Source: an uncultured bacterium
GTDB taxonomy: Bacteria; Bacillota_I; Bacilli_A; RF39; UBA660
Assembly: GCA_945935525.1 (NCBI GenBank)
Contig: CAMERI010000002.1
Coordinates: 188,482-252,481 of the forward strand
Length of the DNA: 64,000 nt
Reading direction: 5' to 3'
The notes beneath the pieces are model-generated. The model saw only the letters and a program-made list of their open reading frames with translations, was not told the origin of the DNA and made no database searches. The position numbers and the translations under genes are program-made. Below, piece by piece: positions 6,590 to 48,688 of the stretch (position 1 is the stretch's first letter; every line of letters starts with the position of its first letter).

Positions 6590-8502
6590 TATTTACCCCC
6601 TTTATAATCATCTTCAAGTGTGAATTCTACATTTTCTTCTATCCATTCTTTACGTACTTCTGAGTCATCTCCCATTAGGACTCCTACTCTTTTTTCAGCT
6701 AGTGCTTTATCATCTATTTTAATTTTAACTAATGTACGAGTAGCTGGATCCATTGTTGTTTCCCATAACTGGTCTGCATTCATTTCACCAAGTCCTTTAT
6801 ATCTTTGAATAGTGTATTTTCCTTTGAATGTATCTTTAAATTCATTTAATTCTTCATTTGTATTTATATATTTTTTATCTTTACCATATTTAACTAAGTA
6901 TAGAGGTGGCACTGCTATATAAAGCATTCCATGTTCTATTAAGTCTCTCATCCATCTATAGAAGAATGTTAGAAGTAATGTTTGAATGTGAGCACCATCA
7001 TCATCGGCATCGGTCATTATTATAACTTTTCCATAGTTTGATTCAGTGTAGTCAAATTCTGCTCCTACTCCTGCTCCTATAGCGTGAACTATTGTATTTA
7101 TTTCTTCATTTTTGAAAAGGTCAGCTACTGTTGACTTTTCACAGTTAATTATTTTACCTCTTAGTGGTAGTATTGCTTGATGACGTTTATCACGACCACT
7201 TTTTGCTGTACCACCTGCACTGTTTCCTTCGACTATAAATAGTTCGTTTTTATTATATTCTTTGCTTTGAGCAGGTGTTAGTTTACCAAGTAATACTTTT
7301 TCACGGCCACTCTTGCCTTTTCCAGCTCTTGCTTCTGCTCTTGCTTTTCTTGCTGCTTCACGGGCTAGTTTACTCTTTAAAGCTTTATCCATTATAGTAG
7401 TTGCTGCTTCTTTATTTTCTTCTAAATAATAAGATAACTTTTCATATACTATACTTTCTACTACTGTTCTTGCTTGAGGAGTACCTAATTTACCTTTAGT
7501 TTGTCCTTCAAATTGTAATAGATTTTCTGGTATTTTTAAACTTATTATTGCTGTTAAGCCTTCACGAGTATCAGTTCCATCTAATCCATCTTTACTCTTT
7601 AATAAGTTGTTACTTTTAATATATTCATTAAATACTTTAGTAAGTGCTGTTTTATATCCTACTTCGTGACTACCACCATCTACAGTTTTAACATTGTTAA
7701 CAAATGACATTATGTTTTCATTATATGTGTTTGTGTACTGCATTGCGATATCTACTTCAATACCATTCTTTTCTCCACTAAAGCTTATTGTTTTATGTAG
7801 TGGTTCTTTTCCTTCATTTACATATTCTACGAATGATACAAGTCCATTGTCATAACTAAATACACTATGTTTATCATCTTCTTCATCAATAACTTCCATA
7901 GTTAGTCCATTTATAAGAAAAGCACTTTCTTGCATTCTTTCACATATAGTTGTGTAACTGAATCTAGCATTACCAAATATTTCTTCGTCTGGGAAGAATT
8001 CAACAGTAGTACCAGTTTGTTTAGTTGTACCTATTTGTTTTAGTTCTTTATCTACGTGTCCACCATTTTTAAATGATATTTCACATATTTTACCTTCTCT
8101 ACATATAGTTACTTTCATCCATTTAGATAATGCGTTAACCACTGATGAACCTACTCCGTGAAGACCACCAGATACTTTGTATCCATCTGTTTCAAATTTA
8201 CCACCTGCGTGTAATACAGTGTAGATTACTTCTGGAGTTGATTTTCCTGATGAGTGTTTTCCAATTGGTACTCCACGTCCTTCATCACTTACTCTTACGC
8301 TTCCAATTTTAGTAAGTGTTACTGTTATTTTTTTACCATAACCATTGATAGCTTCATCTATTGAGTTATCAACAATTTCCCATACTAAATGGTGAAGTCC
8401 TCTTTTATCAGTACTTCCTATATACATACCAGGTCTTTTTCTTACTGCTTCAAGACCTTCTAATATCTTAATTGATTTTTCATTATATTCTGCCATAATC
8501 AC
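6589..8502 (-). CDS. parE: DNA topoisomerase IV subunit B
   Basis: GHKL ATPase plus TOPRIM domain; N-terminal SIKILEGLEAVRKRPGMYIGST is ParE-like; 1-nt overlap with parC. Confidence 0.8.
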   Translation of the reverse strand: MIMAEYNEKSIKILEGLEAVRKRPGMYIGSTDKRGLHHLVWEIVDNSIDEAINGYGKKITVTLTKIGSVRVSDEGRGVPIGKHSSGKSTPEVIYTVLHAGGKFETDGYKVSGGLHGVGSSVVNALSKWMKVTICREGKICEISFKNGGHVDKELKQIGTTKQTGTTVEFFPDEEIFGNARFSYTTICERMQESAFLINGLTMEVIDEEDDKHSVFSYDNGLVSFVEYVNEGKEPLHKTISFSGEKNGIEVDIAMQYTNTYNENIMSFVNNVKTVDGGSHEVGYKTALTKVFNEYIKSNNLLKSKDGLDGTDTREGLTAIISLKIPENLLQFEGQTKGKLGTPQARTVVESIVYEKLSYYLEENKEAATTIMDKALKSKLAREAARKARAEARAGKGKSGREKVLLGKLTPAQSKEYNKNELFIVEGNSAGGTAKSGRDKRHQAILPLRGKIINCEKSTVADLFKNEEINTIVHAIGAGVGAEFDYTESNYGKVIIMTDADDDGAHIQTLLLTFFYRWMRDLIEHGMLYIAVPPLYLVKYGKDKKYINTNEELNEFKDTFKGKYTIQRYKGLGEMNADQLWETTMDPATRTLVKIKIDDKALAEKRVGVLMGDDSEVRKEWIEENVEFTLEDDYKGGK

Positions 8503-8523
8503 CTAATCTCCATCTCATATTAT

Positions 8524-8564
8524 ACAAAAATAAACAAAAAGTGTAAACATTAACTTTACACTTT
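8524..8564 (-). terminator. Rho-independent terminator after the LRR surface protein gene
   Basis: 10-bp perfect stem AAAGTGTAAA / TTTACACTTT, followed on the minus strand by a T-rich tract. Confidence 0.5.
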
Positions 8565-8573
8565 TATTTACTA

Positions 8574-11500
8574 TTACTTTGCTCCCCAAGTGACACATCC
8601 GTTTGTTACATTACTTGTATTGTTTTTTACACAGGTTACGTCTGATGCCCATCCCCAGCCTGGTGAATAAGTTGTAAATTCATTACTCGATGATTTTCCT
8701 TGAATAGTAACTTGTTTTAAATTATTATTTCTAAATGCATCCCAAGATATTGATGTTATACTTTTCGGTATTGTTACACTTGTTAAATTATTGCTTTCAA
8801 ACGCATGACTATTTATTGTCGTTACTCCACTTGGTATGATAATATTCTTATTCTTTCCACCGTAACTTACTATTGTTGTTTTATCTTCACTGCCATCAGT
8901 ATTTCTTTTATAAATAAATGCTTGTGAATCTGATAGTTCATTATTATTGAATGCTTGTTCTTGTATTGACGATACACTATTTGGTATTGTTATACTTGTT
9001 AATTTATTATTTGCAAATGCTGAGTTTCCTATCGTTGTTACACTACTTGGCAGTGTTATACTTGTTAATTTATTATTTGCAAATGCGTAATTGCCTATTG
9101 ATGTTACACTATTTGGTATCGTAATGCTTGTTAAATTATTATTTGAAAATGCATAAATACCTATCGATGTTATTTTATTTGATAAAGTTACACTTGTTAA
9201 ATTATTATTTAAAAATGCATAATTTCCTAATGTCGTTACACTATTTGGAATTGTTAAGTTTGTTAACTTATTATCTGAAAAGGCCGAATTTCCTATTGAT
9301 GTAACTCCGCTTGATATTGTTAAACTTGTTAATTTATTGGCTCGAAATGCATTTTCTCCTATTGAGGTTACACTACTTGGAATTATTACACTTGTTAAAT
9401 TATTATTTTCAAATGCTGAACTTCCTATTGATGTTACACTATTTGGAATTATTACACTTGCTAAATTATTTTTTTCAAATGCTGAACTTCCTATTGTTTT
9501 TATACCATTTGGTATTTTAACTTCTTTATTTTTTCCACCATAACTTATAATTGTTGTTTTGTCTTCACTGCCGTCAGTATTTCTTTTGTAAATAAATGCT
9601 TGCGAATCTTCTAATTGATTATTGTTAAAAGCACTATGTCCAATGCTTTTTACACTCTTTGATATATTTATATTTGTCAATTTATTATTTTCAAATGCTG
9701 AACTTCCTATTGATGTTACGCTATTTGGTATTGTTATACTTGTTAATTCATTATTTTCGAATGCCCAATTCCCTATTGATGTTACACTATCTGGTATTGT
9801 TATACTTGTTAATTTATTATTTGAAAATGCATAAATACCTATTGATGTTACACTACTTGGTATTGTTATACTTGCTAAGTTATTATTTGCAAACGCTGAT
9901 CCACCTATTGATGTTACACTATTTGGTATTGTTATACTTGTTAATTCATTATTTTTGAATGTATAACTTCCTATTGATGTTACACCATTTGGTATTGTTA
10001 TACTTGTTAATTTATTATTTTTGAATGCTGAACCTCCTATTGATGTTACACTATTTGGTATTGTTACACTTGTTAATTTATTATTTGAAAATGCCGAATT
10101 CTCTATTGATGTTACACCATTTGGTATTGTTACACTTGTTAAATTGTTATTTGAAAATGCATTACTTCTTATTGTTGTTACACTATCTGGTATTGTCACA
10201 CTTGTTAATTTATTATTTGAAAAAACACCGTATTCTATTGTTGTTACACTATTTGGTATTGTTACATTTGTTAATTTATTATTTGAAAATGCATTACCTT
10301 CTATTGATGTTACACCATTTGGTATTGTTACACTTGTTAATTTATTATTTGAAAATGCCGAATTCTCTATTGATGTTACACCATTTGGTATTGTTACACT
10401 TGTTAAATTATTATTTGAAAATGCATTACCTTCTATTGTTGTTACACTATTTGGTATTGTTACACTTGTTAATTTATTATTTGAAAATGCATAACCTCCT
10501 ATTGATGTTACACCATTAGGTATTTCTACTTTTTTATTCTTACCACCATAACTTACTATTGTTGTTTTATCTTCACTACCATCATTATTCCTTTTGTATA
10601 TAATAGCTTGTAAATCTTCTAATTGATTATTATTAAAAGCTCCGTTTCCAATATTTTTAACACTCTTTGGTATATCTATATTTGTTAAATCATTATCTTT
10701 GAATGCATCATATGAAATATTCTCTATAGTATCAGGAATAATTACTTTCTTTAATCCTCGTCCTGCAAAAACATTTGAATAATATGAGCATGCATAGTGT
10801 TTTTTTTCTAATGATGTTATTTTTACTCCATTTACTTTTGAAGGAATTATTAATTCTTTAGGGCATTTATCATTTGTATTTGAATAATACTCTATAATAG
10901 CACTTCCAGATACACCAAAACATTCATCTGGTGGTACTATAAGATTCTCTATTGAATCTAATTTATTATCTTCTGTTAATTTAATTGTATTTGTAAATTC
11001 TGTTAGAGAACTGTCGATGTAAATTATTGAGTCATTTGTAATATTTGATTCTTTCTTTTGTGTTATTTCAATATTCTTTGTATCTAGTGTATTTCCATTG
11101 CTATCTTTTACATATAATTCGTGTTTACCTGAAACTATTCCCGATATTCTTACATAACCATTTTCATCGGTAATACCACTTTTTACGTCTGAATGTAGTT
11201 CTACTGTCATATTAGCAAGTGGATTATCATTTTGATCAACAACTCTTGTATACATAGTATATTCTGTTTGAAATGCTAGTTTTGTAGAATCTTCTATGTT
11301 AATTACACCATTAAATTTCTTTCCTTGATTGTAGTCTTGTGCTTTATTTAATTCTTTAAATTCGAAATTTAATGTTATAGTTTGTACTTCACCTGGATAT
11401 ATTATTATATTTTCAGATATTGCATTCTTGCTTGAAGGAACTGTTTTATTTTGAAAATTTATTGTCGCACAAGTATCAGTACTTGATTCACATTCTAAAC

Positions 11501-37278: not shown

Positions 37279-37312
37279 AGAATTTCATTAAATTTGAAAT
37301 TCTTTTTTATTC
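37279..37312. terminator. bidirectional hairpin terminator between the femAB-like gene and the 37307-38908 gene
   Basis: AAGAATTTCA-ttaaat-TTGAAATTCTT followed by TTTT. Confidence 0.5.
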
Positions 37313-38908
37313 TAGTATATATGGGTCAGTATAAATTCCTGTTCCACTTGTTACTTTTATTGTTGGTTTTAATGATATTACCGGATAAATTGCCCCTTCT
37401 CTACCAAATACACTATCAAAGTCTAAACTACCATTATTTCTAACTTGCACCATATTTGCTTGTTTTACCATTAATTTACTTGTAAAGAAAGCTGGTGTCA
37501 TTGTTAAATACCATTCTCCTGTATATAAGTAATAACTATTATTTTGAGTTGCTGAGTTATTAGATGTGTATCTTACCCCTCCTGCGAAAACTCCTTCATC
37601 TCCAGTTAACAAACCTATTGGATACTTAAGCATATTATTACCATATCCTGATGTACCACCACTTGCTTCTGATAAAGTGAATGAATCGTTTACTTGAGGG
37701 CATCTAAATGTAGGTTTTCCTCCTGAAAGTGGAGCCCAAGAATCTGTAGCAACTACTCTTTCAGTAAATCCGTAGAATGTTATATTTGCTGCATATCCTT
37801 TTTTAGTATTTGATGTGTTACCTATTTTATCTCTTGTAGCAAGTGATCTATCATTACAATAAATTACATTATCAACTTTACTTTTATATGTTTCATTACT
37901 TTCAATATTTGTCTTATACCAGTTATCTAGTGTTTGTTTTGCATTACTTTCATTTATGTTTGCATGTTCTTCTTCGTATGATGAACTTCCTGCTGTTCCA
38001 TACATGTAACCCATACCTGCATTATTACTAGATGCGCTTGAGAAAGCTATTGTATCTATTGATGCAGTATTTCCTGTTTGTACGCAATTTCCGTTTACAA
38101 GGCTTCCATCATATCTTAATCTTATACCACCATTTTCATTAGTTCTTATTATTCTCCAGCAATATCCACCAAACAAAGCATAATTATTTGTGACTGCTCC
38201 TCTATAATAGTAAACTCTTCTTCCCTCTTCTGTTTGAATTCCTGAAGTATAATATAATCCTTTTCCATTAGTATCACTTGATATTTTAGCAAAGTCTATT
38301 CCATTAGCAGATGTTACATGTTCACTTGCTTCTGTGTCACTATGAGGAGTATCTGCTTCTACCATTTTGCAATTTAAATTATCTGTATTTGAGTCACATG
38401 TATAATACCATTTACTTACTTCTTCATTTATTTCTTTATATCCAGTTGGTACTATTACATCACCTAATTCATTAAAACTATAGCCACCATATACAGATAA
38501 TTCAACATCTATATTATTTAATGATTTATTATCTATTGATATTTTTATAGTGTTAGTATTTGATTTGCTTGTTAGTGTTCCATATGGTAGTGCATTATCT
38601 TTAAAATATGTTATTTCTATATTATCATCTTCTTTATAAGCTAGTTTGAATTTTGTATCTATATTGTTATTTGAATTTACAACTAATTCTATATTGTTTT
38701 CTCCTGGTTCTACTGTTAACTTTGTTATTTCTGTAGAATCTTTAATAATTTTATAAGTTAACTCTGTTACATACATTTCACTTACTCTATGATTATCTGA
38801 TGTTACAAAGAATCGTGCGTATGTTACAGCTAGAGTTATGCATAAAGTTATAACAATAATAGAAGATAAAATCCATTTTTTTGTTAAAATGCTTACAAAC
38901 AACTTCAT
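37307..38908 (-). CDS. secreted protein with a SipW-cognate-type (TasA/camelysin-class) signal peptide, G/S/T/N-rich
   Basis: N-terminus ...ITLAVTYARFFVTSD resembles the camelysin/TasA signal region (GGTFAYFSD); no other recognisable domain. Confidence 0.4.
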   Translation of the reverse strand: MKLFVSILTKKWILSSIIVITLCITLAVTYARFFVTSDNHRVSEMYVTELTYKIIKDSTEITKLTVEPGENNIELVVNSNNNIDTKFKLAYKEDDNIEITYFKDNALPYGTLTSKSNTNTIKISIDNKSLNNIDVELSVYGGYSFNELGDVIVPTGYKEINEEVSKWYYTCDSNTDNLNCKMVEADTPHSDTEASEHVTSANGIDFAKISSDTNGKGLYYTSGIQTEEGRRVYYYRGAVTNNYALFGGYCWRIIRTNENGGIRLRYDGSLVNGNCVQTGNTASIDTIAFSSASSNNAGMGYMYGTAGSSSYEEEHANINESNAKQTLDNWYKTNIESNETYKSKVDNVIYCNDRSLATRDKIGNTSNTKKGYAANITFYGFTERVVATDSWAPLSGGKPTFRCPQVNDSFTLSEASGGTSGYGNNMLKYPIGLLTGDEGVFAGGVRYTSNNSATQNNSYYLYTGEWYLTMTPAFFTSKLMVKQANMVQVRNNGSLDFDSVFGREGAIYPVISLKPTIKVTSGTGIYTDPYILE

Positions 38909-38982: not shown

Positions 38983-39228
38983 TTACACATACTTTTCAAG
39001 ATCCTTTGGTACTTTATCATTTACTATCATATCTATTATTTTATTTTCTTTTTCTTCTGATACTTCTTTCCCAGTTATATCAGATAGTTCATGTATTATT
39101 TCTTTTAGAGTGTTTCTATCTTTGAAGTTTCCTTCTTGTAGTTTTCTTGCTAAACCTATTATTGTATCTTTATCTACGTTTGTTTTTTCTGTTATCCTAT
39201 TAAAAAGATTATCATTCACATATATCAC
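38983..39228 (-). CDS. small hypothetical protein (81 aa)
   Basis: ORF only. Confidence 0.3.
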   Translation of the reverse strand: MIYVNDNLFNRITEKTNVDKDTIIGLARKLQEGNFKDRNTLKEIIHELSDITGKEVSEEKENKIIDMIVNDKVPKDLEKYV

Positions 39229-39270
39229 CTAACTTATTATATGTAAATAATAAACTTTTGTTCATTTGTC

Positions 39271-40458
39271 CTAAAAATTAAACATTAACCATTCTGGTTT
39301 ATATATCATTAGTATTCCAATTGTAATCATTATAAGTCCACCTATTAAGTGTGAATACTTTCCATATTTATTTGATATTACTTTTATCTCTAGTGTTTTC
39401 ATAGCAATTATAAATATTATAATATCATCTATCATAAAGAATAAAATATATATTAATGAATAAAGTATTTGTCCAAACTTGCTTACTTCATTTATTGTTA
39501 ATATTTGTGTGAACATTACAGGTAAGCCTAATGAGCAAAGAAGTTCTACGATATTAACTGAAGCTGCTAATAATATTATTCCTAAAAGTGCTAGTATGAA
39601 TGATTTTTCTTTAACAATTTTTTGAATTGATTTTATTATTTTCTTTCTATTTTTTGTATCTACTACTTCACATCCATCATCTTTTTTAAAGAAGAATGAG
39701 TTTACTTGAATTACACCAAATAAAACGGCTACGAATGCAATTGCAACTCTAATATATAGTATTTTATTTAAGAATACTGCTAGATTTAACCAAGATATTA
39801 GGAATAAGAAATATACTAGAGCTGATGATACTAAGAATGTTATGCCTAGAGTCCACATTCTTTTTCTATTTTTCATTCCAAGTAACATTGATATAAGAAA
39901 TAAAAGTATCCACATTGCACAAGGATTGAATCCATCAACTAAGCCAATCACAACTGCTGATAGACCTATTGAAACATCTTTTATTTTTTGTTTACCAAGT
40001 ATAGGTATTTTCACTTCTGATTCTTGATAATCTGTTTTTGTTTCTTCTTCGTTTTTATCTTCAACTATTCCAAGATAAATACCTACTTTATCTTTATAAT
40101 TTATATTTTTATAATATTCTACTGCATTTTTTATTCTTTCTGGAGTTATTTCTTCATCGAATCCTGAGATTACTGTTTCTCCAATTATCAAATATGGAAT
40201 TCCACTAGATGTATCATTTAATATGTCATGCACTTTTGAATATTTTTCTTGATTATCTTTGTTATACCACACTTCATATCTATGTATTTTTATGTAATCA
40301 TTTTTCTTCAAATAAGATTCGAACCATTTTTCCTCTTCTTTACAGTGAGGACATCCATCACCATAAAATAAATAAATATTTAAATCTTTTTCACTTCCAA
40401 ATACTAAGAATGGAATAAATAGAAGTAAAAATAATAATACTTTTAATGTCTTTTTCAT
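39271..40458 (-). CDS. thiol:disulfide interchange protein: extracytoplasmic thioredoxin-like domain fused to a CcdA/DsbD-type membrane domain
   Basis: Signal peptide; GCPHC active site; membrane domain contains the NPCAMW motif. Confidence 0.7.
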   Translation of the reverse strand: MKKTLKVLLFLLLFIPFLVFGSEKDLNIYLFYGDGCPHCKEEEKWFESYLKKNDYIKIHRYEVWYNKDNQEKYSKVHDILNDTSSGIPYLIIGETVISGFDEEITPERIKNAVEYYKNINYKDKVGIYLGIVEDKNEEETKTDYQESEVKIPILGKQKIKDVSIGLSAVVIGLVDGFNPCAMWILLFLISMLLGMKNRKRMWTLGITFLVSSALVYFLFLISWLNLAVFLNKILYIRVAIAFVAVLFGVIQVNSFFFKKDDGCEVVDTKNRKKIIKSIQKIVKEKSFILALLGIILLAASVNIVELLCSLGLPVMFTQILTINEVSKFGQILYSLIYILFFMIDDIIIFIIAMKTLEIKVISNKYGKYSHLIGGLIMITIGILMIYKPEWLMFNF

Positions 40459-40709
40459 AGTTCACCTTCTATAATCCTTATAAATTCTTCCTTTTTGTGT
40501 TCTCCACATAGTCTGGTTATTTCTTTGTCATTTTTGTAAAAGATAAATACTGGAAGAATTTTACCTACGTTAAATTTTTCTATATCATCAAAATCAAAGT
40601 CGTAGTCTTCATATTCTATATCTTCATATTCTTTTTTTAACTCATTTATTATCTTATTCATTATTATGCATGATGGACATCCTAGTGAGTTTATTTTTAC
40701 TATTTTCAT
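40455..40709 (-). CDS. small thioredoxin-family protein
   Basis: CPSC redox motif; 84 aa. Confidence 0.6.
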   Translation of the reverse strand: MKIVKINSLGCPSCIIMNKIINELKKEYEDIEYEDYDFDFDDIEKFNVGKILPVFIFYKNDKEITRLCGEHKKEEFIRIIEGEL

Positions 40710-40717
40710 AATTGCTC

Positions 40718-41470
40718 CTATTTTAATGATTTAGATTTTTGTATTTTGTATGTACATTTTACTATGAATTTCCTAGTGAATAGTCTATTTGCAAATACTC
40801 CTAGTTTTATAGTAAATCCTGGTATAATTATTAATTTATTTTTATTCATACACTTTAATGTATACTTTACAACATCTTTACTTTGTAGTGATTTTACTCC
40901 AAATTTTACGTGTGCTCTTTCATTAAAGCCAGTGTCAACTGGACCAGGACATAGGATATGGATTTTTACATTACTTTTATCTCTTCTTAATTCTTCATAT
41001 ATTCCCATGCTTAGATTATAAACATATGATTTGGTTGCATAGTATGTTGACATAAGTGGTCCAGGCTCAAATGCGGCAGAGGAAGCAACATTAAGTATTT
41101 CACCTTTATCTTTCTTAACAAAGTCTTGTAAGAATAGTTTAGTTAACATATGATAAGTAATAACATTTAAATCTATCATATTAAGTTCGTTATCTAAATC
41201 AGTATCAATAAATTTACCAAATGCTCCGAATCCTGCATTATTGATTAATAAATCTACTTTTCCTTTATACTTATTATACAATTTATAAACATTTTCTTTT
41301 ACACTTAGATCCATTACTTCGATTTCAACATTTGTTTTCAATTCTTTAGCAAGTTTTTCTAATTTATCTTTTGATCTTGCTACCAAAATTAAATCATAGC
41401 CTTCTTTTGAAAGTTCTTTTGCAAAATCTGCTCCTAGACCATTAGAAGCTCCTGTTATCAAAGCTTTCAT
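40718..41470 (-). CDS. short-chain dehydrogenase/reductase (SDR)
   Basis: TGASNGLG cofactor motif and a YxxxK catalytic region. Confidence 0.85.
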   Translation of the reverse strand: MKALITGASNGLGADFAKELSKEGYDLILVARSKDKLEKLAKELKTNVEIEVMDLSVKENVYKLYNKYKGKVDLLINNAGFGAFGKFIDTDLDNELNMIDLNVITYHMLTKLFLQDFVKKDKGEILNVASSAAFEPGPLMSTYYATKSYVYNLSMGIYEELRRDKSNVKIHILCPGPVDTGFNERAHVKFGVKSLQSKDVVKYTLKCMNKNKLIIIPGFTIKLGVFANRLFTRKFIVKCTYKIQKSKSLK

Positions 41471-41508
41471 TCTATCACCTAGTAATTATTTTAACATAGT
41501 TTTTACCT

Positions 41509-41534
41509 AAAAAAAAGATTGTTGTTACAATCTT
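41509..41534 (-). terminator. Rho-independent terminator ending the vWA/kinase/PurA-like operon
   Basis: AAGATTGT-tgtt-ACAATCTT followed on the minus strand by TTTTTTTT. Confidence 0.55.
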
Positions 41535-42460
41535 CTTCCTTTGTTTGTATTTGGTTTTAATGATAAACTCATTCCTATATCTGTGTTAACATTTGCTATC
41601 TCAGTACTATTTGATAATTCTTGTAATGACTTTGTTACTCCTTCAATTCTAGTAGTAGTTTGCCCTCTTCCTTTCATATCAAGAGCATATACTTCTAAAT
41701 CTTGTTTTTGAATAGCTATAACTCCTAATATTAAATCTATAATTGCCTTTTCTTCTGGTATTCTAACTACATGCTCTGGAGGTAATACCTCTTTCCATGC
41801 ATCAGTAATATCACTTCTAAATTTATTTCCACAGTATCTATTTAGCATTACAAATACATTATCTTTAAATTTCTTATTTAATGCTTCAAATGGTTTATAT
41901 CCTTTTTCTGCTGGAATTCCTATACCTTCTGCTTGACTAAGATTTAAATCTTTATAAGGTGCTTCATCCGCTACAAAGAATACCATTGGATTTGCATCTT
42001 TTCTAAATTCTGTATTGTTTGCTAAGTAATGTGCCATTAATTCATATGATTCTTGTACTTGTCCTCCCCCAGCTCCTTCAAGAACCAACTTTTCTAAATT
42101 ACTATCTATTTCTAATCCTTTAGCAAAGTCATTTATTTGTATTGGATAATCATCTGTGTACGCGTCTCCAACTGCACAAATTGATATATCAAAATCTTTT
42201 AAATAACCTTTTTGTTCTAATTCTCCATAGAACATTGGAAATTTATCATATACTAATCTTGCAAAATTAATATTTGAACCTGTAACATCTAATACTATTA
42301 CAATTGGTGTTTTAGCATCACTTTTTATTATTTTTCCCTTTGGTAACATTTTACTATCTAGTGAAGTACTATTTAACTTGCTTGATGAATAATCGCTTGC
42401 TCCCCAACTATCATAACTACTTCCACTATAAACATCTCTATCATAACTATAACTTCCCAT
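41525..42460 (-). CDS. von Willebrand factor A (vWA) domain protein with a Ser/Tyr/Asp-rich N-terminal tail
   Basis: MIDAS-like VLDVTGS motif; N-terminus MGSYSYDRDVYSGSSYDSWGASDYSSS. Confidence 0.7.
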   Translation of the reverse strand: MGSYSYDRDVYSGSSYDSWGASDYSSSKLNSTSLDSKMLPKGKIIKSDAKTPIVIVLDVTGSNINFARLVYDKFPMFYGELEQKGYLKDFDISICAVGDAYTDDYPIQINDFAKGLEIDSNLEKLVLEGAGGGQVQESYELMAHYLANNTEFRKDANPMVFFVADEAPYKDLNLSQAEGIGIPAEKGYKPFEALNKKFKDNVFVMLNRYCGNKFRSDITDAWKEVLPPEHVVRIPEEKAIIDLILGVIAIQKQDLEVYALDMKGRGQTTTRIEGVTKSLQELSNSTEIANVNTDIGMSLSLKPNTNKGRRL

Positions 42461-42469
42461 ATAATCCTC

Positions 42470-43504
42470 CTAATTTACTTTTCTTTCTAGTGTTTTAAAT
42501 CTTTGATGACCATACACTTCATTTCTTATTTGTATTAGTTCGTTCCATAATGCCCACGCATCATTTTCTTTTTCACTTAGTAATTTTCTAATGAATGACC
42601 TTACTTTCACATCTACATTTACTGGCAAAGCTACCCTATCCATATCACCTCCTAATAAATCTATTGCTAACATACCAACTGCATATATATCCACATTTGG
42701 AATGACTTTTGCATCCTTACCGACATATTTTGGTGAGAATGTCTCATTTACTATTTTATATTTACTCGTTTCTTTATTAGCTTCTTCAATACAAAGTGAA
42801 TAATCAGTAACTGACACATTGTGAGTAGATGGGTCAATTAAAACATTTTCTCTTTTTATATTTCCATGAACGATTTTCTTAGAATGCAAATATCCAACTA
42901 CTGAAAGTAATCTTTCTAATATCCAGCAAATATGTTCACCGCTTAAATTTCCATAATATTTTTTTATTTCTTCTATAGTGAGTCCATCTTTTCTTTCTAC
43001 TATTACGGCATTTCTGCCATTTATTTTTGCTTTTGAAATTAATTTTGGTATTGATAAATGATCTAACTCACTTAGAATTTTTCCTTCTTCTTTTATCAAA
43101 TCATCATCTGATTCATCGCTTGCAATTTTCAATTCTATTAATTGTTCATCAAGTAGTCCCTCATAAACTGTTGCAACGTCTTCACATCTTGATACTTTAT
43201 AAAATTTATATTCTCTTCCTTTTAATTCAAATTCAAATAATGGAGATGCTCTTTTTAAAAGTTCTTTTTCATCTAATATTTGGTATGTTCCATCTTGAAT
43301 TTCTTTTTGTGCGAGAGTGTAGTACTCATTTAATATTTTTGTTGCTTTTTCTGCTAACGCTTTTTCTTCTTCTTTTGCTAAATCTGGATGACATATTTTT
43401 GCATAATTTCTATACACCTTTTTTATTTCATTTTCATTACTACCAAATATCTCAATTGGCCTTTTAGCATTTATAAGTAACTCTGTAATTTCTTTGATAG
43501 ACAT
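42470..43504 (-). CDS. J-domain protein fused to a protein-kinase-like domain (catalytic HRD replaced by HGN, so probably a pseudokinase)
   Basis: J-domain IKKVYRNYAKICHPD (HPD motif); kinase-like lobes with beta3 Lys (IELKIA), alphaC Glu, catalytic loop VHGNIKRENVLID, a TDY segment in place of DFG, and SPKYV. Confidence 0.6.
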   Translation of the reverse strand: MSIKEITELLINAKRPIEIFGSNENEIKKVYRNYAKICHPDLAKEEEKALAEKATKILNEYYTLAQKEIQDGTYQILDEKELLKRASPLFEFELKGREYKFYKVSRCEDVATVYEGLLDEQLIELKIASDESDDDLIKEEGKILSELDHLSIPKLISKAKINGRNAVIVERKDGLTIEEIKKYYGNLSGEHICWILERLLSVVGYLHSKKIVHGNIKRENVLIDPSTHNVSVTDYSLCIEEANKETSKYKIVNETFSPKYVGKDAKVIPNVDIYAVGMLAIDLLGGDMDRVALPVNVDVKVRSFIRKLLSEKENDAWALWNELIQIRNEVYGHQRFKTLERKVN

Positions 43505-44043
43505 TTTATATTTTCACCTCCATCTAATATGATGTCTGCATCTTTCTTTTGTGGTTCAATGTGTGTTCTATATATGCATAAAATTACATCATTAAAGTAT
43601 TTTCTTATTTCTTCTTCACTAATTCCATAACTTTTATCTCTTTTTATTCTTCTTTCAAGAGAAATGTTTTTATCTATTTCAATAAATACTTTTAATGTGT
43701 CTCTTAAATCTTTTAATGCATCTATCGTGTGTAATCCTTCAAATATTACTCTTCCATTTGTTCTAATAATTCTTGATTTGTCTACTCTTTTATTTGCTGA
43801 TAAATCATATGTTGGAATTATTACTTTTTTCTTTTCAATTAAAGTTTTTGAGTCATTTACAAACTCTTCAATATTAAAAGCATTTGGTAAGTCCATTAAG
43901 TATCCTTTTCTAGATAGTGGTATATCTTTTTTATCTTTAAAATACCAGTCTTCCTCAAAATGACTCATATTATATTCTTTCGATAAATAGTTACTTAATG
44001 TAGTTTTGCCTGAGCAAGTCATTCCAGAAATTATAATATTCAT
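43471..44043 (-). CDS. uridine/cytidine-kinase-like P-loop nucleoside kinase
   Basis: Walker A GMTCSGKTT; IPTYDLSANKR resembles the Udk VPIYDFSTHSR motif. Confidence 0.65.
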   Translation of the reverse strand: MNIIISGMTCSGKTTLSNYLSKEYNMSHFEEDWYFKDKKDIPLSRKGYLMDLPNAFNIEEFVNDSKTLIEKKKVIIPTYDLSANKRVDKSRIIRTNGRVIFEGLHTIDALKDLRDTLKVFIEIDKNISLERRIKRDKSYGISEEEIRKYFNDVILCIYRTHIEPQKKDADIILDGGENIKCLSKKLQSYL

Positions 44044-45437
44044 TTTAAAATCCTTTCTAATTTTTGATTTCTATTTGGCCCTACGCCTATTAAAGATATT
44101 TTTGAATTTATTAAGTATTCTATTAGTTCTATAAAATTTATACATTCTTCTGGTAAATCTTCTACTCTTTTAATATCACTTATATCTTGATTCCATCCAT
44201 CAATTGTTATATATAATGGGAGCGTTTTAGCTAAATATTTTCTTAAATCCGGACTATTTCTTTTTATATTTTTAATTATTATTTTATTTCCATCTTTGTA
44301 ATATTCGAATGTTTCTTTAAACTCTTCATCTATTTGTCCTATGTAAATGTATGAGTCACAAATCTTAATTTCTTTAAATGGTGACAATCTATCAAGTGCC
44401 GATAAGAAGAAATAATCATTTTTATTAATAGAGTTAGCATATCTTGTGAGTACTGCATCAAACCATCCATATCTTGGCCTTCCTTGATAATAACTTTCTG
44501 ATTGGTTTTCATCCTTTATTAATGCTTCAACTTTCTTATCATAAGTTGGAAGAACTCCCATACCATGTCTACTTGTTAATGCAGATATAGCACCTATCTT
44601 ATGAATATTAGTATTTAATTCGTTTGCTAAAACTATCCCATTTTGATTTGTTGTATTTAATAATGTTGTGTTTGGCCTTATACCATAATCTCTATCAATT
44701 AATAACCCCTGTGAGCCTTCAAATACAATATCACTGTCAGTGTGAAATGTTCTTATATCTTTTGTAACATTGATGAAACCACTTCTTAGTAAATTCTCAT
44801 AGCATCTAATTATGTATTCTCTATTTTTAGATTCAGTTAAGTGTGATATGTCATCAGTTCTAATGAGTCTGCTTATAAGTTCTTTATTTTGAGAACTCTT
44901 ATAAAATTTTTGAGCATAACCAAATAATTCTTTTAATTTTTCTTTGTATACTTCACTATTGAAGTCACTCATCAATAGTTTAATTCCTGTTTCTTCAAAT
45001 GTTCTTGTTACTTCACTTACACCACTTCCAACAGAACCCCTTCTATTATTCTTACTTTCAATTTCTCTTAAATTATCAATTAATTTGTGATAAGGTGTCA
45101 CGATAGGTACTTCACTATCTACAAATACTCTTTTTAATATTTCTTCTCTTGGTACTTTTGTTTTTTCACTTAAGAAATTACTTTCACTAATTATGTTAAA
45201 GAGATTTACCACTGTGTATTTCGATAGAAAAGTTCTAGTGTCTTCATTTAGAAACGCTGAACCCAGTTGACTAAATTTGTGTGTTAGACCATCATTGACA
45301 ACTGTATGACTTGCTTGACTTCCACCATTATATCTAACGTTTTCTTTTATATCTTTAGTACTTGCTAGATAATCAACTAAAGTCCCTTTTCCTTCGTCAC
45401 CAAATAATGTTCCAGATACTATATAACTATTATTCAT
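44040..45437 (-). CDS. divergent adenylosuccinate-synthetase (PurA)-family ligase
   Basis: PurA motifs GDEGKG(T), QASHT (PurA has NAGHT), GSVGSGVSE (PurA has TGRGIGP), ALDRLS (PurA has KLDVL) and a C-terminal IGVGPNRNQ. Confidence 0.75.
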   Translation of the reverse strand: MNNSYIVSGTLFGDEGKGTLVDYLASTKDIKENVRYNGGSQASHTVVNDGLTHKFSQLGSAFLNEDTRTFLSKYTVVNLFNIISESNFLSEKTKVPREEILKRVFVDSEVPIVTPYHKLIDNLREIESKNNRRGSVGSGVSEVTRTFEETGIKLLMSDFNSEVYKEKLKELFGYAQKFYKSSQNKELISRLIRTDDISHLTESKNREYIIRCYENLLRSGFINVTKDIRTFHTDSDIVFEGSQGLLIDRDYGIRPNTTLLNTTNQNGIVLANELNTNIHKIGAISALTSRHGMGVLPTYDKKVEALIKDENQSESYYQGRPRYGWFDAVLTRYANSINKNDYFFLSALDRLSPFKEIKICDSYIYIGQIDEEFKETFEYYKDGNKIIIKNIKRNSPDLRKYLAKTLPLYITIDGWNQDISDIKRVEDLPEECINFIELIEYLINSKISLIGVGPNRNQKLERILK

Positions 45438-46329
45438 ATAAGAAACTCCTCCATCCTTTTAATGCTTTTTCTAATTTAGGTCCTTGTATTTCATCTTGTA
45501 ACATAAATGTTTTATATCCATATAAATACATAAGTTCTAAATCTTCCATATCAGGTAATGAAATTTCGGACTCTTTATTTAACGATGAAAATAATCTCGA
45601 TGCACATATGGTTGATGGATATTTTTTTATTATTTCTTGTAATGCTTTTAAGACATTTATATCATCTTTACATTCGAGCCATAAATCATCTCTTGCTGCC
45701 ATAGGTTGTATTGCTATATTATTTGATAAAGCAAAGCGTAAACCTTTTAATGATTCTATTTTTGCAACTATTGTTGCATTTGTATTTAAAGAAAGTATTT
45801 CTACTAAATCATCAAATGATTCTAAAAATGATGCCATATAATTATTCATTCCTAATTCTTTTGATTCTTTTATGAATTCTTTATCAAGTTGAGTTAAGTA
45901 TCCTTCTATTATTAAACTTTTTGCTTTTACATTTACTGATTGTCCTTTTCCTACAGCTCTTTCAGGAGGTTCTTCTAAAATAATTTTATTTCCTTTTGTA
46001 TGCATAATATTTGATGTATTCCCACCTCTAAAAATTACTTTTGCTGGATATTCTATATCTATTTTGTGATTTAGTTCTATTGCTTCATAACTAGTATCTG
46101 CCCAACTATTAACTCTTAGTTGTCTTCCCTTTAAATCTATCCATATTTTTTTGTTAAATTTTTCTTCTAATGATTTTAATATTTCAATTATTTTCTTTTC
46201 CTCTAAAAGTTCATTCACTCCTGTATTAAATCTTACTTCACTAATGTATTCACTTGACATCATTTCTTCTACTGCCTTCTTGTTATGAATATGTGGAAGA
46301 GTTCCAATTAATTTTATATCCTTTTTCAT
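45430..46329 (-). CDS. pyruvate-kinase-like TIM-barrel protein lacking the PK C-terminal domain
   Basis: Collinear with the PK barrel motifs: KLIGTLP (TIGP-like), EVRFNTGV (RLNFSHG-like), IDLKGRQLRV (DTKGPEIR-like), AKIESLKGL (KIEN-like), MAARDDLWLEC (MVARGDLG-like). Confidence 0.55.
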   Translation of the reverse strand: MKKDIKLIGTLPHIHNKKAVEEMMSSEYISEVRFNTGVNELLEEKKIIEILKSLEEKFNKKIWIDLKGRQLRVNSWADTSYEAIELNHKIDIEYPAKVIFRGGNTSNIMHTKGNKIILEEPPERAVGKGQSVNVKAKSLIIEGYLTQLDKEFIKESKELGMNNYMASFLESFDDLVEILSLNTNATIVAKIESLKGLRFALSNNIAIQPMAARDDLWLECKDDINVLKALQEIIKKYPSTICASRLFSSLNKESEISLPDMEDLELMYLYGYKTFMLQDEIQGPKLEKALKGWRSFLYE

Positions 46330-46338
46330 ATTTATTCC

Positions 46339-46362
46339 TTTATGTGTATTTTTTACACTTTA
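46339..46362 (-). promoter_or_regulatory. putative NrtR-like operator (copy 2), 15-30 nt upstream of the PK-like gene's start codon
   Basis: TATGTGTATTTTTTACACTT is identical over 20 nt to the copy at 47078-47099; core palindrome GTGTA-n5-TACAC. Confidence 0.4.
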
Positions 46363-46382
46363 TATTGCTTTTTAAAAGCATT

Positions 46383-47057
46383 TTAAAATATGCTTTTCTT
46401 TGTTATTTTTGAATTGAATTTATATAACTTAGCAGGTTTTTTTCCTTTATAAGTTATTGTTTTATTTATATCTTCAATAAGCTTTAAACTTAACATTTTT
46501 TTTCTGAAATTTCTTCTATCAATTTCTTTATTTAATATTGACTCATATACATTGTGTAGTTCTGGTAAAGTAAATTCATAAGGAAATAATGATTTTAGAA
46601 TATCACTAGATATTATATCCTTTTTTAATTCATCAATTCCTCCTTTTAATATTTCATTATGGTCATATGCTAATTTTGGAACTTCATCTAGTGAAAACCA
46701 ATCTGAGTTTGAAGTCTTGTTTGTTTTTGTTATTAGTTCTGCTTTTTTTATGTCTATAACGCCTATAAATAGTATAGCTATCAATCTTTTTATTGGTGAC
46801 CTATCTAATTTATCATAGATGCCGCATTGTCTTAACTCAATATTATCTAAACCAGTTTTTTCTTTTAATTCTCTTTTTGCCCCATCAATTAGTAATTCAT
46901 CATTATATAGTCCACCACCAGGTAATGCCCAATAATCTTTAAATGGTTCATTCGTTCTTCTGATTAATAATACTTTTGTTACTCCCTTATCAATTGTAAA
47001 TATAGTACTTACTACATGAATACCAATGTTTTTATAAAGCGGATTTTTTAATTCCAT
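46383..47057 (-). CDS. NrtR-family regulator (NUDIX domain plus C-terminal winged-helix DNA-binding domain)
   Basis: Nudix box GGLYNDELLIDGAKRELKEKTGL; C-terminal FTLPELHNVYESILNKEIDRRNFRKKM...KPAKLYKF matches the NrtR wHTH pattern. Confidence 0.7.
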   Translation of the reverse strand: MELKNPLYKNIGIHVVSTIFTIDKGVTKVLLIRRTNEPFKDYWALPGGGLYNDELLIDGAKRELKEKTGLDNIELRQCGIYDKLDRSPIKRLIAILFIGVIDIKKAELITKTNKTSNSDWFSLDEVPKLAYDHNEILKGGIDELKKDIISSDILKSLFPYEFTLPELHNVYESILNKEIDRRNFRKKMLSLKLIEDINKTITYKGKKPAKLYKFNSKITKKSIF

Positions 47058-47075
47058 ATCATCACTTCCATTTTC

Positions 47076-47104
47076 ATTATATGTGTATTTTTTACACTTG
47101 TCAA
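47076..47104 (-). promoter_or_regulatory. consensus sigma-A promoter of the NrtR-like gene, with an operator palindrome in the spacer
   Basis: TTGACA, 17-nt spacer, TATAAT on the minus strand; the palindrome GTGTAtttttTACAC at 47083-47097 lies between -35 and -10. Confidence 0.5.
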
Positions 47105-47113
47105 TATATTTTA

Positions 47114-47149
47114 AGAAAAATAAAAAAGAAGTTACTATTTAGCAACTTC
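47114..47149 (-). terminator. Rho-independent terminator after rny
   Basis: GAAGTT...AACTTC hairpin followed on the minus strand by TTTTTTATTTTT. Confidence 0.5.
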
Positions 47150-48688
47150 TTCAGCTCTTGTTTCTCTAATTACAACAACTTTTATTGTGCCAGGATATTG
47201 CATTGTATCTTCAATCTTTTCTTTGATTTCCCTTGCTATTTTATAACTTGATAAGTCATCAATTTCATCTGGCTTAACCATAACACGTAATTCTCTTCCA
47301 GCTTGCATTGCAAATGTCTTTTCAACGCCTTCCATTGAGTTACCTATGCTTTCTAACTCTTCAAGTCTCTTAACATAGTTTTCTAAAGAATCATTTCTAG
47401 CACCTGGTCTTGAAGCACTTAATGCATCTGCAACTGCTACTAATTCAGAAATAACATATTCAGCTTTTTTATCTCCATGATGTGATTCAATTGCATTTAT
47501 TACAACTTTATCTTCTCCATGTTTCTTAGCAACATCTGCTCCAATTTCTACATGACTTCCTTCAACTTCAAAGTCAATTGCTTTTCCTATATCATGAAGT
47601 AAACCTGCTCTTTTAGCTAATTGAACATTTTCACCTAATTCACTTGCCATTAAACCAGCTAAGTGTGCAACCTCTTTACTATGAGCAAGTGCATCTTGTC
47701 CATAACTAGTTCTAAATGCTAATTTACCAATTAATTCAACTATCTCAGGAGCAACTTTTGATATACCAAGTTCAAATAATGCTTCTTCACCTTTTTCACG
47801 AATTATTTTTTTATAATCTTCACATACTTTATCATATAATTCTTCAATTCTTGCTGGGTGAATTCTTCCATCTTTGATAAGTGTTTCAAGAGTTACTTTT
47901 GCAATTTCTCTTCTTAGTGGGTCGAATGATGATAACACAATTACTTCTGGGGTATCATCAATTATTAAATCGACTCCGGTTACAGCTTCAATTGTTCTAA
48001 TATTTCTACCTTCCCTGCCAATGATTCTTCCTTTCATTTCATCATTTGGAAGTTCTACAGTACTAACTGTTTGTTCACTAGTAACATCACTAGAATATCT
48101 TTGCATACTAGATACAATTAATTCTTTTGCTTTTCTATCTGCTTCAAGTTTTGCTTCATCTTCACGTTCTTTTAAGTAGACTGAAATTTCTCTTCCCATT
48201 TCTTCTTCTACTTTTTTTAGTATAGTTTCTCTTGCTTTTTCCTTCGAAAAACCAGAGATTTTTTCTAAAAGAGCTATTTGCTCCTTTATTATACTCTCCA
48301 TTTTTGCATCTTTTTCTTGAATTTCTTTTTGTTGTGCCAATAAATCTTTATCTTTTTGGTCTAGGTTTTTTTCTCTTTCAGTTAATAATTCATCACGTTT
48401 ATCTAAACTCTTTTCGCGGTTATCAATTCTTTGATTTAGATCATTAAGTTCTTTTTTCTTTTCCTTAATTTCTGCATCAGTTTGATTTTTTAACTTGTAA
48501 CTTTCTTCTTTTAATTCTAAAATGCCATCTCTTTTTGCTTTTTCAGCTTCTTTTTTAGCATCTTGAATTAGTTTATCAGCTTCTTTTTGTGCAGCACTTA
48601 CTTTTAATTTGTTAATTATAATCATTATGAAAGCGCCTACAAGCAATCCAACTACTACAAGCAAAATGGAGATAATTACATCATTCAT
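47135..48688 (-). CDS. rny: ribonuclease Y
   Basis: N-terminal TM, coiled coil, KH domain and HD domain; 517 aa. Confidence 0.95.
   Translation of the reverse strand: MNDVIISILLVVVGLLVGAFIMIIINKLKVSAAQKEADKLIQDAKKEAEKAKRDGILELKEESYKLKNQTDAEIKEKKKELNDLNQRIDNREKSLDKRDELLTEREKNLDQKDKDLLAQQKEIQEKDAKMESIIKEQIALLEKISGFSKEKARETILKKVEEEMGREISVYLKEREDEAKLEADRKAKELIVSSMQRYSSDVTSEQTVSTVELPNDEMKGRIIGREGRNIRTIEAVTGVDLIIDDTPEVIVLSSFDPLRREIAKVTLETLIKDGRIHPARIEELYDKVCEDYKKIIREKGEEALFELGISKVAPEIVELIGKLAFRTSYGQDALAHSKEVAHLAGLMASELGENVQLAKRAGLLHDIGKAIDFEVEGSHVEIGADVAKKHGEDKVVINAIESHHGDKKAEYVISELVAVADALSASRPGARNDSLENYVKRLEELESIGNSMEGVEKTFAMQAGRELRVMVKPDEIDDLSSYKIAREIKEKIEDTMQYPGTIKVVVIRETRAEEVAK

Follow-up and report, generated by a model that had tools for sequence, protein, structure and literature searches.

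A vWA-fold protein with conserved terminal peptides, its PurA-like partner and a predicted J-domain pseudokinase: a possible adaptor system

We analyzed the gene of a vWA-fold protein in a stretch of DNA of 64,000 nucleotides from an uncultured bacterium of the RF39 lineage (assembly GCA_945935525.1, contig CAMERI010000002.1, positions 188,482 to 252,481; G+C content, 27.7%), the whole of which is hereafter called the window. The gene lies on the minus strand at 41525..42460 and encodes 311 amino acids from an ATG start. Comparison of its homologues indicated that the conserved element at the N-terminus of the protein is a specific acidic-aromatic motif, and that the hydroxyl richness of the same region is not conserved. 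The protein is cytoplasmic and single-domain, and consists of a vWA core, with a conserved site of the type termed MIDAS (an adhesion site that depends on a metal ion), and two disordered arms ending in conserved peptides. We found that the gene belongs to a cassette in which a PurA-like gene is the universal partner, and the genes for a predicted J-domain pseudokinase, a pyruvate-kinase-barrel-like (PK-like) protein, a uridine-kinase-like (Udk-like) protein and an NrtR-like regulator are add-ons. Our tentatively favored hypothesis, which we regard as possible rather than probable, is that the vWA protein works as an adaptor or regulator and couples the PurA-like enzyme to machinery for protein handling, namely DnaK via the J domain or, in eukaryotes, ubiquitination via a U-box.

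The first ~40 residues of the protein had been described in the initial annotation, which was made from the window alone, as a low-complexity, hydroxyl-rich stretch. The richness was borne out: residues 1-40 contain 13 Ser, 5 Tyr and 5 Asp, and their Ser+Thr+Tyr content of 47.5% was the highest value observed, as compared with a background mean of 17.4% (sd 7.1) for 16,587 40-residue windows from 60 gene-like open reading frames (ORFs) of the 64-kb window. The stretch is not generic, however, since residues 1-10 (MGSYSYDRDV; 42431..42460, minus strand) form a conserved motif with the consensus MGG-x(1-3)-Y-[DE]-R-[DE]-V, which is the hallmark of the family. To follow its conservation, we used three alignments, of which A1 holds close homologues, A2 reaches 29% identity and A3 is very diverse. 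M1, Y6, D7, R8, D9, V10, S14, S15 and W19 are invariant in A1, and down to 29% overall identity M1 and G2 remain invariant, with G3 and S5 nearly so. Among 108 full-length diverse representatives, 93 have Gly and 9 more have Ser or Ala as the second residue, and 85 have Gly as the third; the Y-D-R-D-V consensus follows a few residues further on in 75 of them, behind an oligo-Gly spacer of variable length. The motif is kept across bacteria, archaea, phages and protists.

Residues 11-21 (YSGSSYDSWGA; 42398..42430, minus strand) constitute a Ser/Tyr-rich linker that is lineage-specific, variable in length and predicted to be disordered, and that carries insertions of SSSxFG-type repeats in homologues. 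The Ser fraction of residues 9-32 was 0.44 in five-gene cassettes, 0.35 in four-gene cassettes and about 0.08 in three-gene cassettes. A dependence of Ser richness on the presence of the PK-like gene was considered and set aside, as this trend follows phylogeny and is inseparable from it. In a model built with AlphaFold2 (AF2), residues 2-20 had a pLDDT score (local distance difference test, as predicted by AF2) below 50, so that "disordered recruitment tail", a term also offered in the initial annotation, is a fair description. The tail is followed by an ordered strap (residues 22-47; 42320..42397, minus strand; pLDDT 72-95 over blocks 21-50), which packs on the vWA core as a helix at 23-28 and then an LDxxMxPxGK segment running into the first strand, with S22, P40, G42, K43 and S47 conserved. 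At the other end of the protein, residues 287-311 (41528..41602, minus strand; pLDDT <50) form a disordered tail with the basic end KGRRL-COOH. Nearly all homologues of prokaryotes and phages, ranging from Firmicutes to mycobacteriophages, end in G[KR]RL or xxRL, and in eukaryotic homologues a U-box stands in place of the basic peptide. Docking, rather than the acceptance of phosphate, is the probable role of the N-terminal tail.

A mis-called start would have made the tail an artefact. This was contradicted by the sequence upstream of the gene, in which an AGGAGG ribosome-binding site (42466..42471, minus strand) lies 5 bases ahead of the ATG, and by the identical Met-Gly start found in all 37 aligned homologues and at the 43 genomic loci described below. 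The ribosome-binding site at the right distance and the common start together indicate that the start call is real. The AGGAGG also overlaps the TAG stop codon (42472-42470) of the upstream J-domain/kinase-like gene, which as read from the sequence implies translational coupling of the two genes. They share a common frame; the adjacency first reported was right, and the gap, given there as 10 bp, measured 9 nt.

The vWA core had been called a standard MIDAS-type domain on account of the string VLDVTGS. The motif and the fold stood, and "standard" proved too strong a word, as no sequence model recognizes the protein: Pfam gave no match up to E=10, and NCBIfam, PADLOC and the PDB sequences yielded none either. 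Seven distant members of the family likewise matched no vWA sequence model, and a search of the PDB sequences with the family profile returned no vWA chain, the only hit being a chance match to an aconitase-family chain (E 0.006). The AF2 model, built from 37 sequences, had a predicted template modeling score of 0.81 and a core mostly at pLDDT >90. It shows a Rossmann-like alpha/beta arrangement with a central, mostly parallel sheet and flanking helices, superposable on solved vWA domains, and Foldseek matched it to integrin beta-I/alpha-I and VWF-A domains at probability 1.0, with NorD, BchD, midasin-MIDAS and Rpn10 as further structural neighbors. On the evidence of this model, the protein clearly has a vWA fold, one that is visible by fold and lies below sequence-level detection.

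The first MIDAS motif is predicted at D58-V-T60-G-S62 (42275..42289, minus strand), a DxTxS variant of DxSxS located at the end of strand beta-1, between the strand at 51-58 and the helix at 61-84 of the model. In alignments A1 and A3, D58, G61 and S62 do not vary and T60 reaches a conservation of at least 90%, and most of the wider family carries a canonical-looking DVTGSMG. D165-E166 (41963..41968, minus strand), at the end of the strand at 159-164, is a candidate for the distal MIDAS aspartate, placed by topology only; the pair is invariant in A1 and A2, and D165 also in A3. The family lies outside Pfam and NCBIfam, and its entry in PHROGs (phrog_2971, E 3.8e-33) is annotated as "unknown function". 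A profile search of 1.84 billion cluster representatives recovered 1,590 members with a threshold of E<=1e-3, of which 280 reached E<=1e-30. If our reading is true, this is a large family (~1,600 cluster-50 representatives), invisible to Pfam and NCBIfam, that bears a cross-domain N-terminal motif.

The universal partner of the vWA gene is a gene for a PurA-like GTP-dependent ligase (44040..45437, minus strand; 465 amino acids; Pfam Adenylsucc_synt, E 4e-75), which we found beside it in bacteria, archaea, phages and eukaryote-type contigs. The PurA-like protein scored 210 bits with the NCBIfam PurA model, as against a cut-off of 402, and its identification as PurZ was ruled out by a score of 28.4 bits as against a cut-off of 300 (NF038379). 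It shares the full-length PurA fold and, as checked in 39 cassette homologues and 7 more, the residues for GTP binding and catalysis, and differs from PurA and PurZ in the substrate pockets and in these equivalog scores. The P-loop GDEGKG, D13, K16, H41, Q224, T239 and the guanine-specific D333 of Escherichia coli PurA are retained. In the E. coli enzyme, L-aspartate is bound by R303, R305, T300 and T301, and the 5'-phosphate of IMP by N38, T128/T129 and R143'. The changes found throughout the PurA-like family are N38Q, T129 to V/C, R143 to non-basic residues, V273H, T300 to F/Y, T301 to W/Y, G302 to Q/N, R303G, R305 to P/I/F and K331 to small residues, and the phage and eukaryote-type copies share these substitutions. 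Since the aspartate and IMP-phosphate pockets are remodeled and the scores fall below the equivalog cut-offs, the product is probably not an adenylosuccinate synthetase, and the comparison of residues points to a ligase with other substrates.

The gene immediately upstream of the vWA gene (42470..43504, minus strand; 344 amino acids) had been regarded as a J-domain/kinase-like gene, and this was confirmed by Pfam matches to DnaJ (29.0 bits; cut-off, 27.8) and to the protein-kinase domain (E 1.9e-18). The HPD tripeptide of the J domain (residues 39-41; 43382-43390, minus strand) is invariant as H39-P40-D41 in an alignment of close homologues (A6) and was found in 48 of 55 full-length partners; it sits in a helical hairpin (helices 24-38 and 45-70) modeled at a pLDDT of around 90. 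The AF2 model as a whole had a pLDDT of 91.9, and the top Foldseek matches were PknB/PknA and the DNAJB1-PRKACA chimera (4wb7, 8fe5). When the kinase-like domain was aligned with StkP, HGN (residues 213-215; 42860-42868, minus strand) was found in place of HRD, so that HRDLKPQN becomes HGNIKREN, with the HRD Asp replaced by N215; DFG becomes DYS, and the Gly-rich loop is degenerate. Among the 55 partners, the triplet reads HGN in 36, HGA in 6, HGS and HEN in 2 each, and HGG and HGL in 1 each. The catalytic Asp was thus present in none of the 48 partners with an identifiable catalytic loop, the other 7 being unmatched by the search pattern; several Clostridia lack the DFG Asp too. These features predict that the neighbor is a J-domain pseudokinase. 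As the catalytic base is missing family-wide, the protein is implausible as a canonical kinase for the tail, and the annotation of such neighbors as "Ser/Thr kinase" stands to be corrected.

We then compared the gene order at 43 species-level genomic loci, in all of which the vWA gene stands in a fixed cassette. The order in Bacilli and Clostridia is PK-like, PurA-like, Udk-like, J-pseudokinase and vWA; in Leptospiraceae, Verrucomicrobia, Woesearchaeota and Methanosarcinales it is J-pseudokinase, vWA, PK-like and PurA-like; and in Saccharibacteria, Acidimicrobiia and Burkholderiales it is J-pseudokinase, vWA and PurA-like. Two sub-modules with a constant internal order can be recognized, in which the J-pseudokinase gene precedes the vWA gene and the PK-like gene precedes the PurA-like gene. 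The J-pseudokinase gene is immediately upstream of the vWA gene at 41 of the 43 loci and at many metagenomic loci, and the junctions measure 9 nt or overlap across lineages. Clustering of the neighbors of the 43 loci revealed nothing else that is conserved, except the NrtR-like regulator in Bacilli and, independently, in Saccharibacteria. A PP2C phosphatase was found neither among the window neighbors nor among the gene clusters conserved across the 43 loci; the window annotation and the same clustering showed no FHA reader in the cassette; and no AAA+ gene occurred among the conserved neighbors of these 43 loci and of 80 metagenomic loci.

Many more cassettes were recovered from the 80 metagenomic loci. 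Two of them (L070 and L053) carry four-gene cassettes among dense small phage-type ORFs; at L070, two small ORFs lie between the vWA and PK-like genes, and at L053, the vWA gene precedes the J-kinase gene. Two loci of Leptospiraceae type (L034 and L061) have no adjacent J-kinase gene; the vWA, PK-like and PurA-like genes stand there in this order, with RecQ or other genes upstream of them. At one Leptospiraceae locus, an unrelated SpoIIE-type sensor lies upstream. A metagenome-assembled genome assigned to Methanosarcinales (L028) has two tandem vWA paralogues (7740-8948 and 8949-9977), in the first of which the MGG..Y.R.V motif apparently occurs twice (MKQMGGETYSRPV... and ...RMGGGSYSRDV...).

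A tblastn search gave 210 phage records with the vWA gene, of which mycobacteriophages (Bixzunavirus, cluster C1, where inspected) account for 201, and PHROGs families also exist for the J-kinase and the PurA-like protein. In Mycobacterium phage Sebata (L127, 150212-153931), the three-gene form consists of gp260, annotated as "Ser/Thr kinase" and carrying a J domain and HGA, gp261, annotated as "hypothetical", and gp263, annotated as "PurA", with a small ORF, gp262, after gp261. We identified gp261 as the vWA protein (MGSGAWDSYTY...TDRL). Two further loci, L045 and L046, were grouped with the mycobacteriophage form. An adenylosuccinate synthase homologue has been mentioned in Bxz1-like phages (PMC2771037). 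In Vibrio phage VB_VaC_SRILMA (L128, 47592-51115), the PurA-like gene comes directly after the vWA gene (MGGATWNSADY...), a J-kinase gene being absent, and this two-gene form adjoins anaerobic ribonucleotide reductase genes and an exonuclease gene. The ORF upstream of the SRILMA vWA gene encodes a Met/Gly-rich protein of unknown kind.

AT-rich contigs of eukaryote type encode vWA proteins, beginning MGGDYYDRDV... or MGGGYYDRDD..., that are fused to a C-terminal U-box (Pfam E 3e-16), which fills the role that the J-protein has in the cassettes of prokaryotes and phages as far as gene content is concerned. Such U-box fusions are located at L059:7001-8404, L065:4476-5804 and L072:7001-8356, and also in L074, and one eukaryote-type protein is an R3H + U-box fusion. 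The vWA region of L059 that encodes the MIDAS motif contains a 48-nt GT..AG intron; recoding of TGA was rejected as the cause of split vWA ORFs, as translation table 4 gave no cure. On some of these contigs, the neighboring genes encode a channel of IP3R/RyR type, a P-type ATPase and a TLDc protein. Two of the contigs, L072 and L074, carry beside the vWA gene, on the opposite strand, a PurA-like gene that has the signature of the cassette, encoding 714 amino acids in L072 (4387-6531) and truncated by the contig edge in L074; the eukaryotic origin of these two contigs rests on the U-box fusion, the composition and the analogy with L059, L065, L084 and L122. The expectation that the tail would be kept only together with a kinase partner was not borne out, since the motif persists at L034 and L061, in SRILMA and in the eukaryotic U-box fusions, although a kinase elsewhere in these genomes is possible.

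In the adaptor hypothesis, the vWA protein would bind a partner, the likeliest being the PurA-like enzyme, alone or complexed with the PK-like protein, through its MIDAS metal on an acidic residue and through the terminal peptides as docking elements. In prokaryotes, the partner would then be handed to the host DnaK recruited through the J domain, and in eukaryotes to E2~ubiquitin recruited through the U-box. The acidic Y-D-R-D-V on its flexible tether, for which the Ser-rich stretch would provide the length, could itself serve as the ligand of the MIDAS, either in cis or in trans. The kinase-like domain would act as a scaffold or nucleotide sensor rather than as an enzyme phosphorylating the tail, and the NrtR-like repressor, presumably seated on a promoter palindrome, would gate expression by a nucleotide-type ligand. 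In other systems, vWA proteins serve as peptide-binding co-chaperones of MoxR ATPases (PMC7159879), and the MIDAS binds Glu or Asp of a partner (PMC6509490).

Several observations weigh against this hypothesis. SRILMA has neither a J-protein nor a U-box, and a partner of the protein-handling kind can thus be dispensed with. By sequence, the distal MIDAS Thr could not be assigned, as no conserved Thr was found; the equivalent of the distal-Thr loop is a GGGxxxES loop with invariant E137/S138. AF2 docks the N-terminal motif nowhere (pLDDT <50), a result that is uninformative for a model holding neither metal nor partner. The window J-protein keeps the VAIK Lys K126, the alpha-C Glu E140, the catalytic-loop Asn N220 and the DFG Asp D234; binding of a nucleotide by the kinase-like domain is possible because of the retained Lys, Glu and Asn, and the sequence leaves room for residual or atypical catalysis. 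Moreover, the adaptor model leaves the most conserved feature of the protein, the near-invariance of Gly2-Gly3, unexplained.

This last point has a ready answer in a different scheme, in which Gly2, exposed by removal of Met, would be the amine substrate of the PurA-like ligase. The enzyme would phosphorylate a 6-oxopurine-type nucleotide with GTP and join it to the vWA N-terminus, with the Udk-like and PK-like proteins supplying the nucleotide and regenerating GTP. Residue 2 is small in 102 of the 108 representatives (Gly, Ser or Ala, all of which permit Met excision), Gly3 is present in 85 of the 108, the PurA-like enzyme is the only universal partner, and it has kept its phosphotransfer machinery while losing the aspartate arginines, turning T300/T301 aromatic and changing its IMP-phosphate ligands. 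The PurA active site is deep and loop-closed, however, a Gly-Gly pair could equally serve flexibility or some other recognition, and we know of no PurA-family enzyme that has a protein as its substrate; we therefore consider such tagging quite unlikely. An extension of this idea, that the vWA and PurA-like proteins are an ancient substrate-enzyme pair whose N-terminal nucleotide tag is read by DnaK/J-pseudokinase or by U-box ubiquitination as a nucleotide-state switch, seems to us improbable. If nucleotide tagging were true, it would be a post-translational modification not described so far, and a switch common to cells and viruses. The initial annotation had instead seen in the tail a presumed phospho-acceptor of the adjacent kinase, that is, a TerY-P-like or ArnB-like switch on the vWA protein. 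Such a switch would suit a tail that is extremely hydroxyl-rich and disordered, the translational coupling to a kinase-fold gene and the retention of K126, E140, the catalytic-loop Asn and D234 in the window J-protein, and it has precedents in ArnB, the terminal region of which is phosphorylated by ArnC/ArnD (PMC6509490), and in the TerY-P triads, which pair a vWA protein with a kinase (PMC11090510). We nevertheless judge it very unlikely. Another residue stands for the catalytic Asp in every one of the 48 partners (out of 55) whose loop could be located, and several Clostridia have lost the DFG Asp as well; the cassette contains neither a phosphatase nor an FHA reader, and the TerY-type models of PADLOC were unmatched. 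The conserved feature is the acidic-aromatic motif and not the hydroxyl richness, and this motif persists in loci and organisms that have no kinase gene next to it.

It is unlikely, but less so, that the cassette is a conflict module, serving anti-phage defense in cells or counter-defense in phages, in which the PurA-like, PK-like and Udk-like proteins would make or destroy a nucleotide and the vWA/J-pseudokinase pair would be the sensor or a threshold device; this role is compatible with the adaptor mechanism. Its distribution is patchy over distant phyla and archaea, it occurs in 210 phage records and on phage-like metagenomic contigs and adjoins ribonucleotide reductase genes in the Vibrio phage, the operon begins with the gene of a Nudix-family repressor gated by a ligand, and vWA-plus-chaperone systems are common in conflict systems (PMC7159879). 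On the other hand, the vWA, PurA-like and PK-like proteins had no match in PADLOC, the cassette stands in a housekeeping context with conserved synteny in Bacilli, homologues exist in eukaryotes, and there is no toxin-like effector. Finally, the low pLDDT of residues 2-20 and the variable length of the Ser-rich part could be taken to mean that the tail is a functionless, biased disordered extension or a start artefact. This is extremely improbable in view of the spacing of the ribosome-binding site, the residues invariant in A1, and a motif shared by the three domains of life and phages.

Among known systems, the vWA module would, by analogy, work most like a vWA chaperone-adaptor with a different engine. 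The proposed logic is like that of the MoxR-vWA pairs (CbbQ-CbbO, NorQ-NorD, RavA-ViaA and BchI-BchD), with Hsp70/J in place of AAA+. Unlike these pairs, the cassette has no AAA+ gene at any locus, and its J domain implies Hsp70/DnaK; its vWA protein has conserved terminal peptides, its proposed client is PurA-like, and it is linked to a U-box in eukaryotes. The TerY-P triad (TerY vWA, PP2C and Ser/Thr kinase; PMC11090510) resembles the cassette in that a MIDAS vWA protein shares an operon with a protein-kinase-fold gene. The cassette differs in lacking PP2C and in having an obligatory PurA-like partner, and whereas the TerY-P kinase has a C-terminal zinc ribbon or OB fold, the protein here has an N-terminal J domain and no catalytic Asp. 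The vWA/kinase triad first suggested for the locus was accordingly not upheld, and membership in TerY-P was rejected: in the PADLOC library of known defense systems, which should cover TerY-P, no family matched the vWA protein at E<=0.1, and the cassette has neither a PP2C gene nor a competent kinase.

In the ArnA-ArnB system of Sulfolobus, the phospho-sites of ArnB are C-terminal, ArnC/ArnD are active, and FHA provides the reader, whereas the present system has a degenerate kinase fold, no FHA protein, and a conserved acidic-aromatic motif at the N-terminus. The RGD/LDV or "internal" acidic ligands of integrin beta-I/alpha-I domains may be likened to Y-D-R-D-V; unlike integrins, the vWA protein of the window is cytoplasmic, single-domain and prokaryotic, and forms no alpha/beta heterodimer. 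The order of J domain and kinase in the J-pseudokinase is the same as that in DNAJB1-PRKACA; the latter (J-PKAc) is an active kinase from a human oncogenic fusion, whereas the bacterial fusion is natural and ancient and has a dead catalytic loop. We found no description of the module in the open-access literature on the cassette components, related systems and phages. If the adaptor hypothesis is true, an Hsp70/J-linked version, U-box-linked in eukaryotes, joins the AAA+-linked vWA adaptor systems, and the PurA-like protein is a ligase with a different amine and a different nucleotide substrate that works with a dedicated vWA partner. The "adenylosuccinate synthetase" of ~200 Bxz1-like mycobacteriophages and many gut Firmicutes would then probably not be an enzyme of purine biosynthesis.

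The remaining cassette genes of the window are on the minus strand. The PK-like gene (45430..46329; 299 amino acids; Pfam PK, E 1.1e-8) encodes a minimal pyruvate-kinase barrel with a short B domain and no C domain, in which alignment with PykF showed that the equivalents of K220, E222 and D246 are kept. It was found at 33 of the 43 loci, directly upstream of the PurA-like gene and frequently overlapping it, and its product plausibly regenerates GTP. The Udk-like gene (43471..44043; 190 amino acids; Pfam PRK, E 5.4e-17) encodes a P-loop kinase of the uridine-kinase/PRK family, which scored 103 bits with the NCBIfam udk model as against a cut-off of 180, and is confined to the five-gene cassettes (29 of the 43 loci). 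The overlaps of 8 nt between the PK-like and PurA-like genes, 4 nt between the PurA-like and Udk-like genes, and 34 nt (43471-43504) between the Udk-like and J-pseudokinase genes suggest tight translational coupling of the unit.

The first gene of the transcription unit (46383..47057, minus strand) encodes an NrtR-like regulator, composed of a degenerate Nudix domain and a winged helix (Pfam NrtR_WHD, E 1.6e-21; NUDIX, E 5.8e-16). The terminator of rny (47152-47125) is followed by a sigma-70 promoter upstream of this gene, TTGACA-17-TATAAT (47076..47104, minus strand), which matches the consensus at 12 of 12 positions, and no terminator-like site was detected downstream of the promoter through the cassette in the region scanned (39000-48000). 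The promoter spacer contains the palindrome GTGTA-N5-TACAC (47083-47097, minus strand), and the same box was found at the same place in the related Bacilli L002, L003, L005, L007, L008 and L018. A related box, GTGTATAAATGACAC, is present in the intergenic region between the NrtR and J-kinase genes of Saccharibacteria (L040). The palindrome is a candidate operator, and probably that of the NrtR-like repressor.

The window cassette sits among housekeeping genes (rny, FemAB and SDR), with synteny conserved in related Bacilli. Further along the minus strand, an ORF of 533 amino acids (37307-38908) with no Pfam match has a hydrophobic, probably membrane-spanning N-terminus. Directly downstream of the cassette (39271-41470, minus strand) lie three genes, which encode an SDR protein, a small thioredoxin-like protein and a membrane protein resembling thioredoxin/DsbD. 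The stretch from the vWA gene to these three genes showed no terminator-like site, and they may be co-transcribed with the cassette; their order is kept in the Bacilli L002, L005, L007 and L008.

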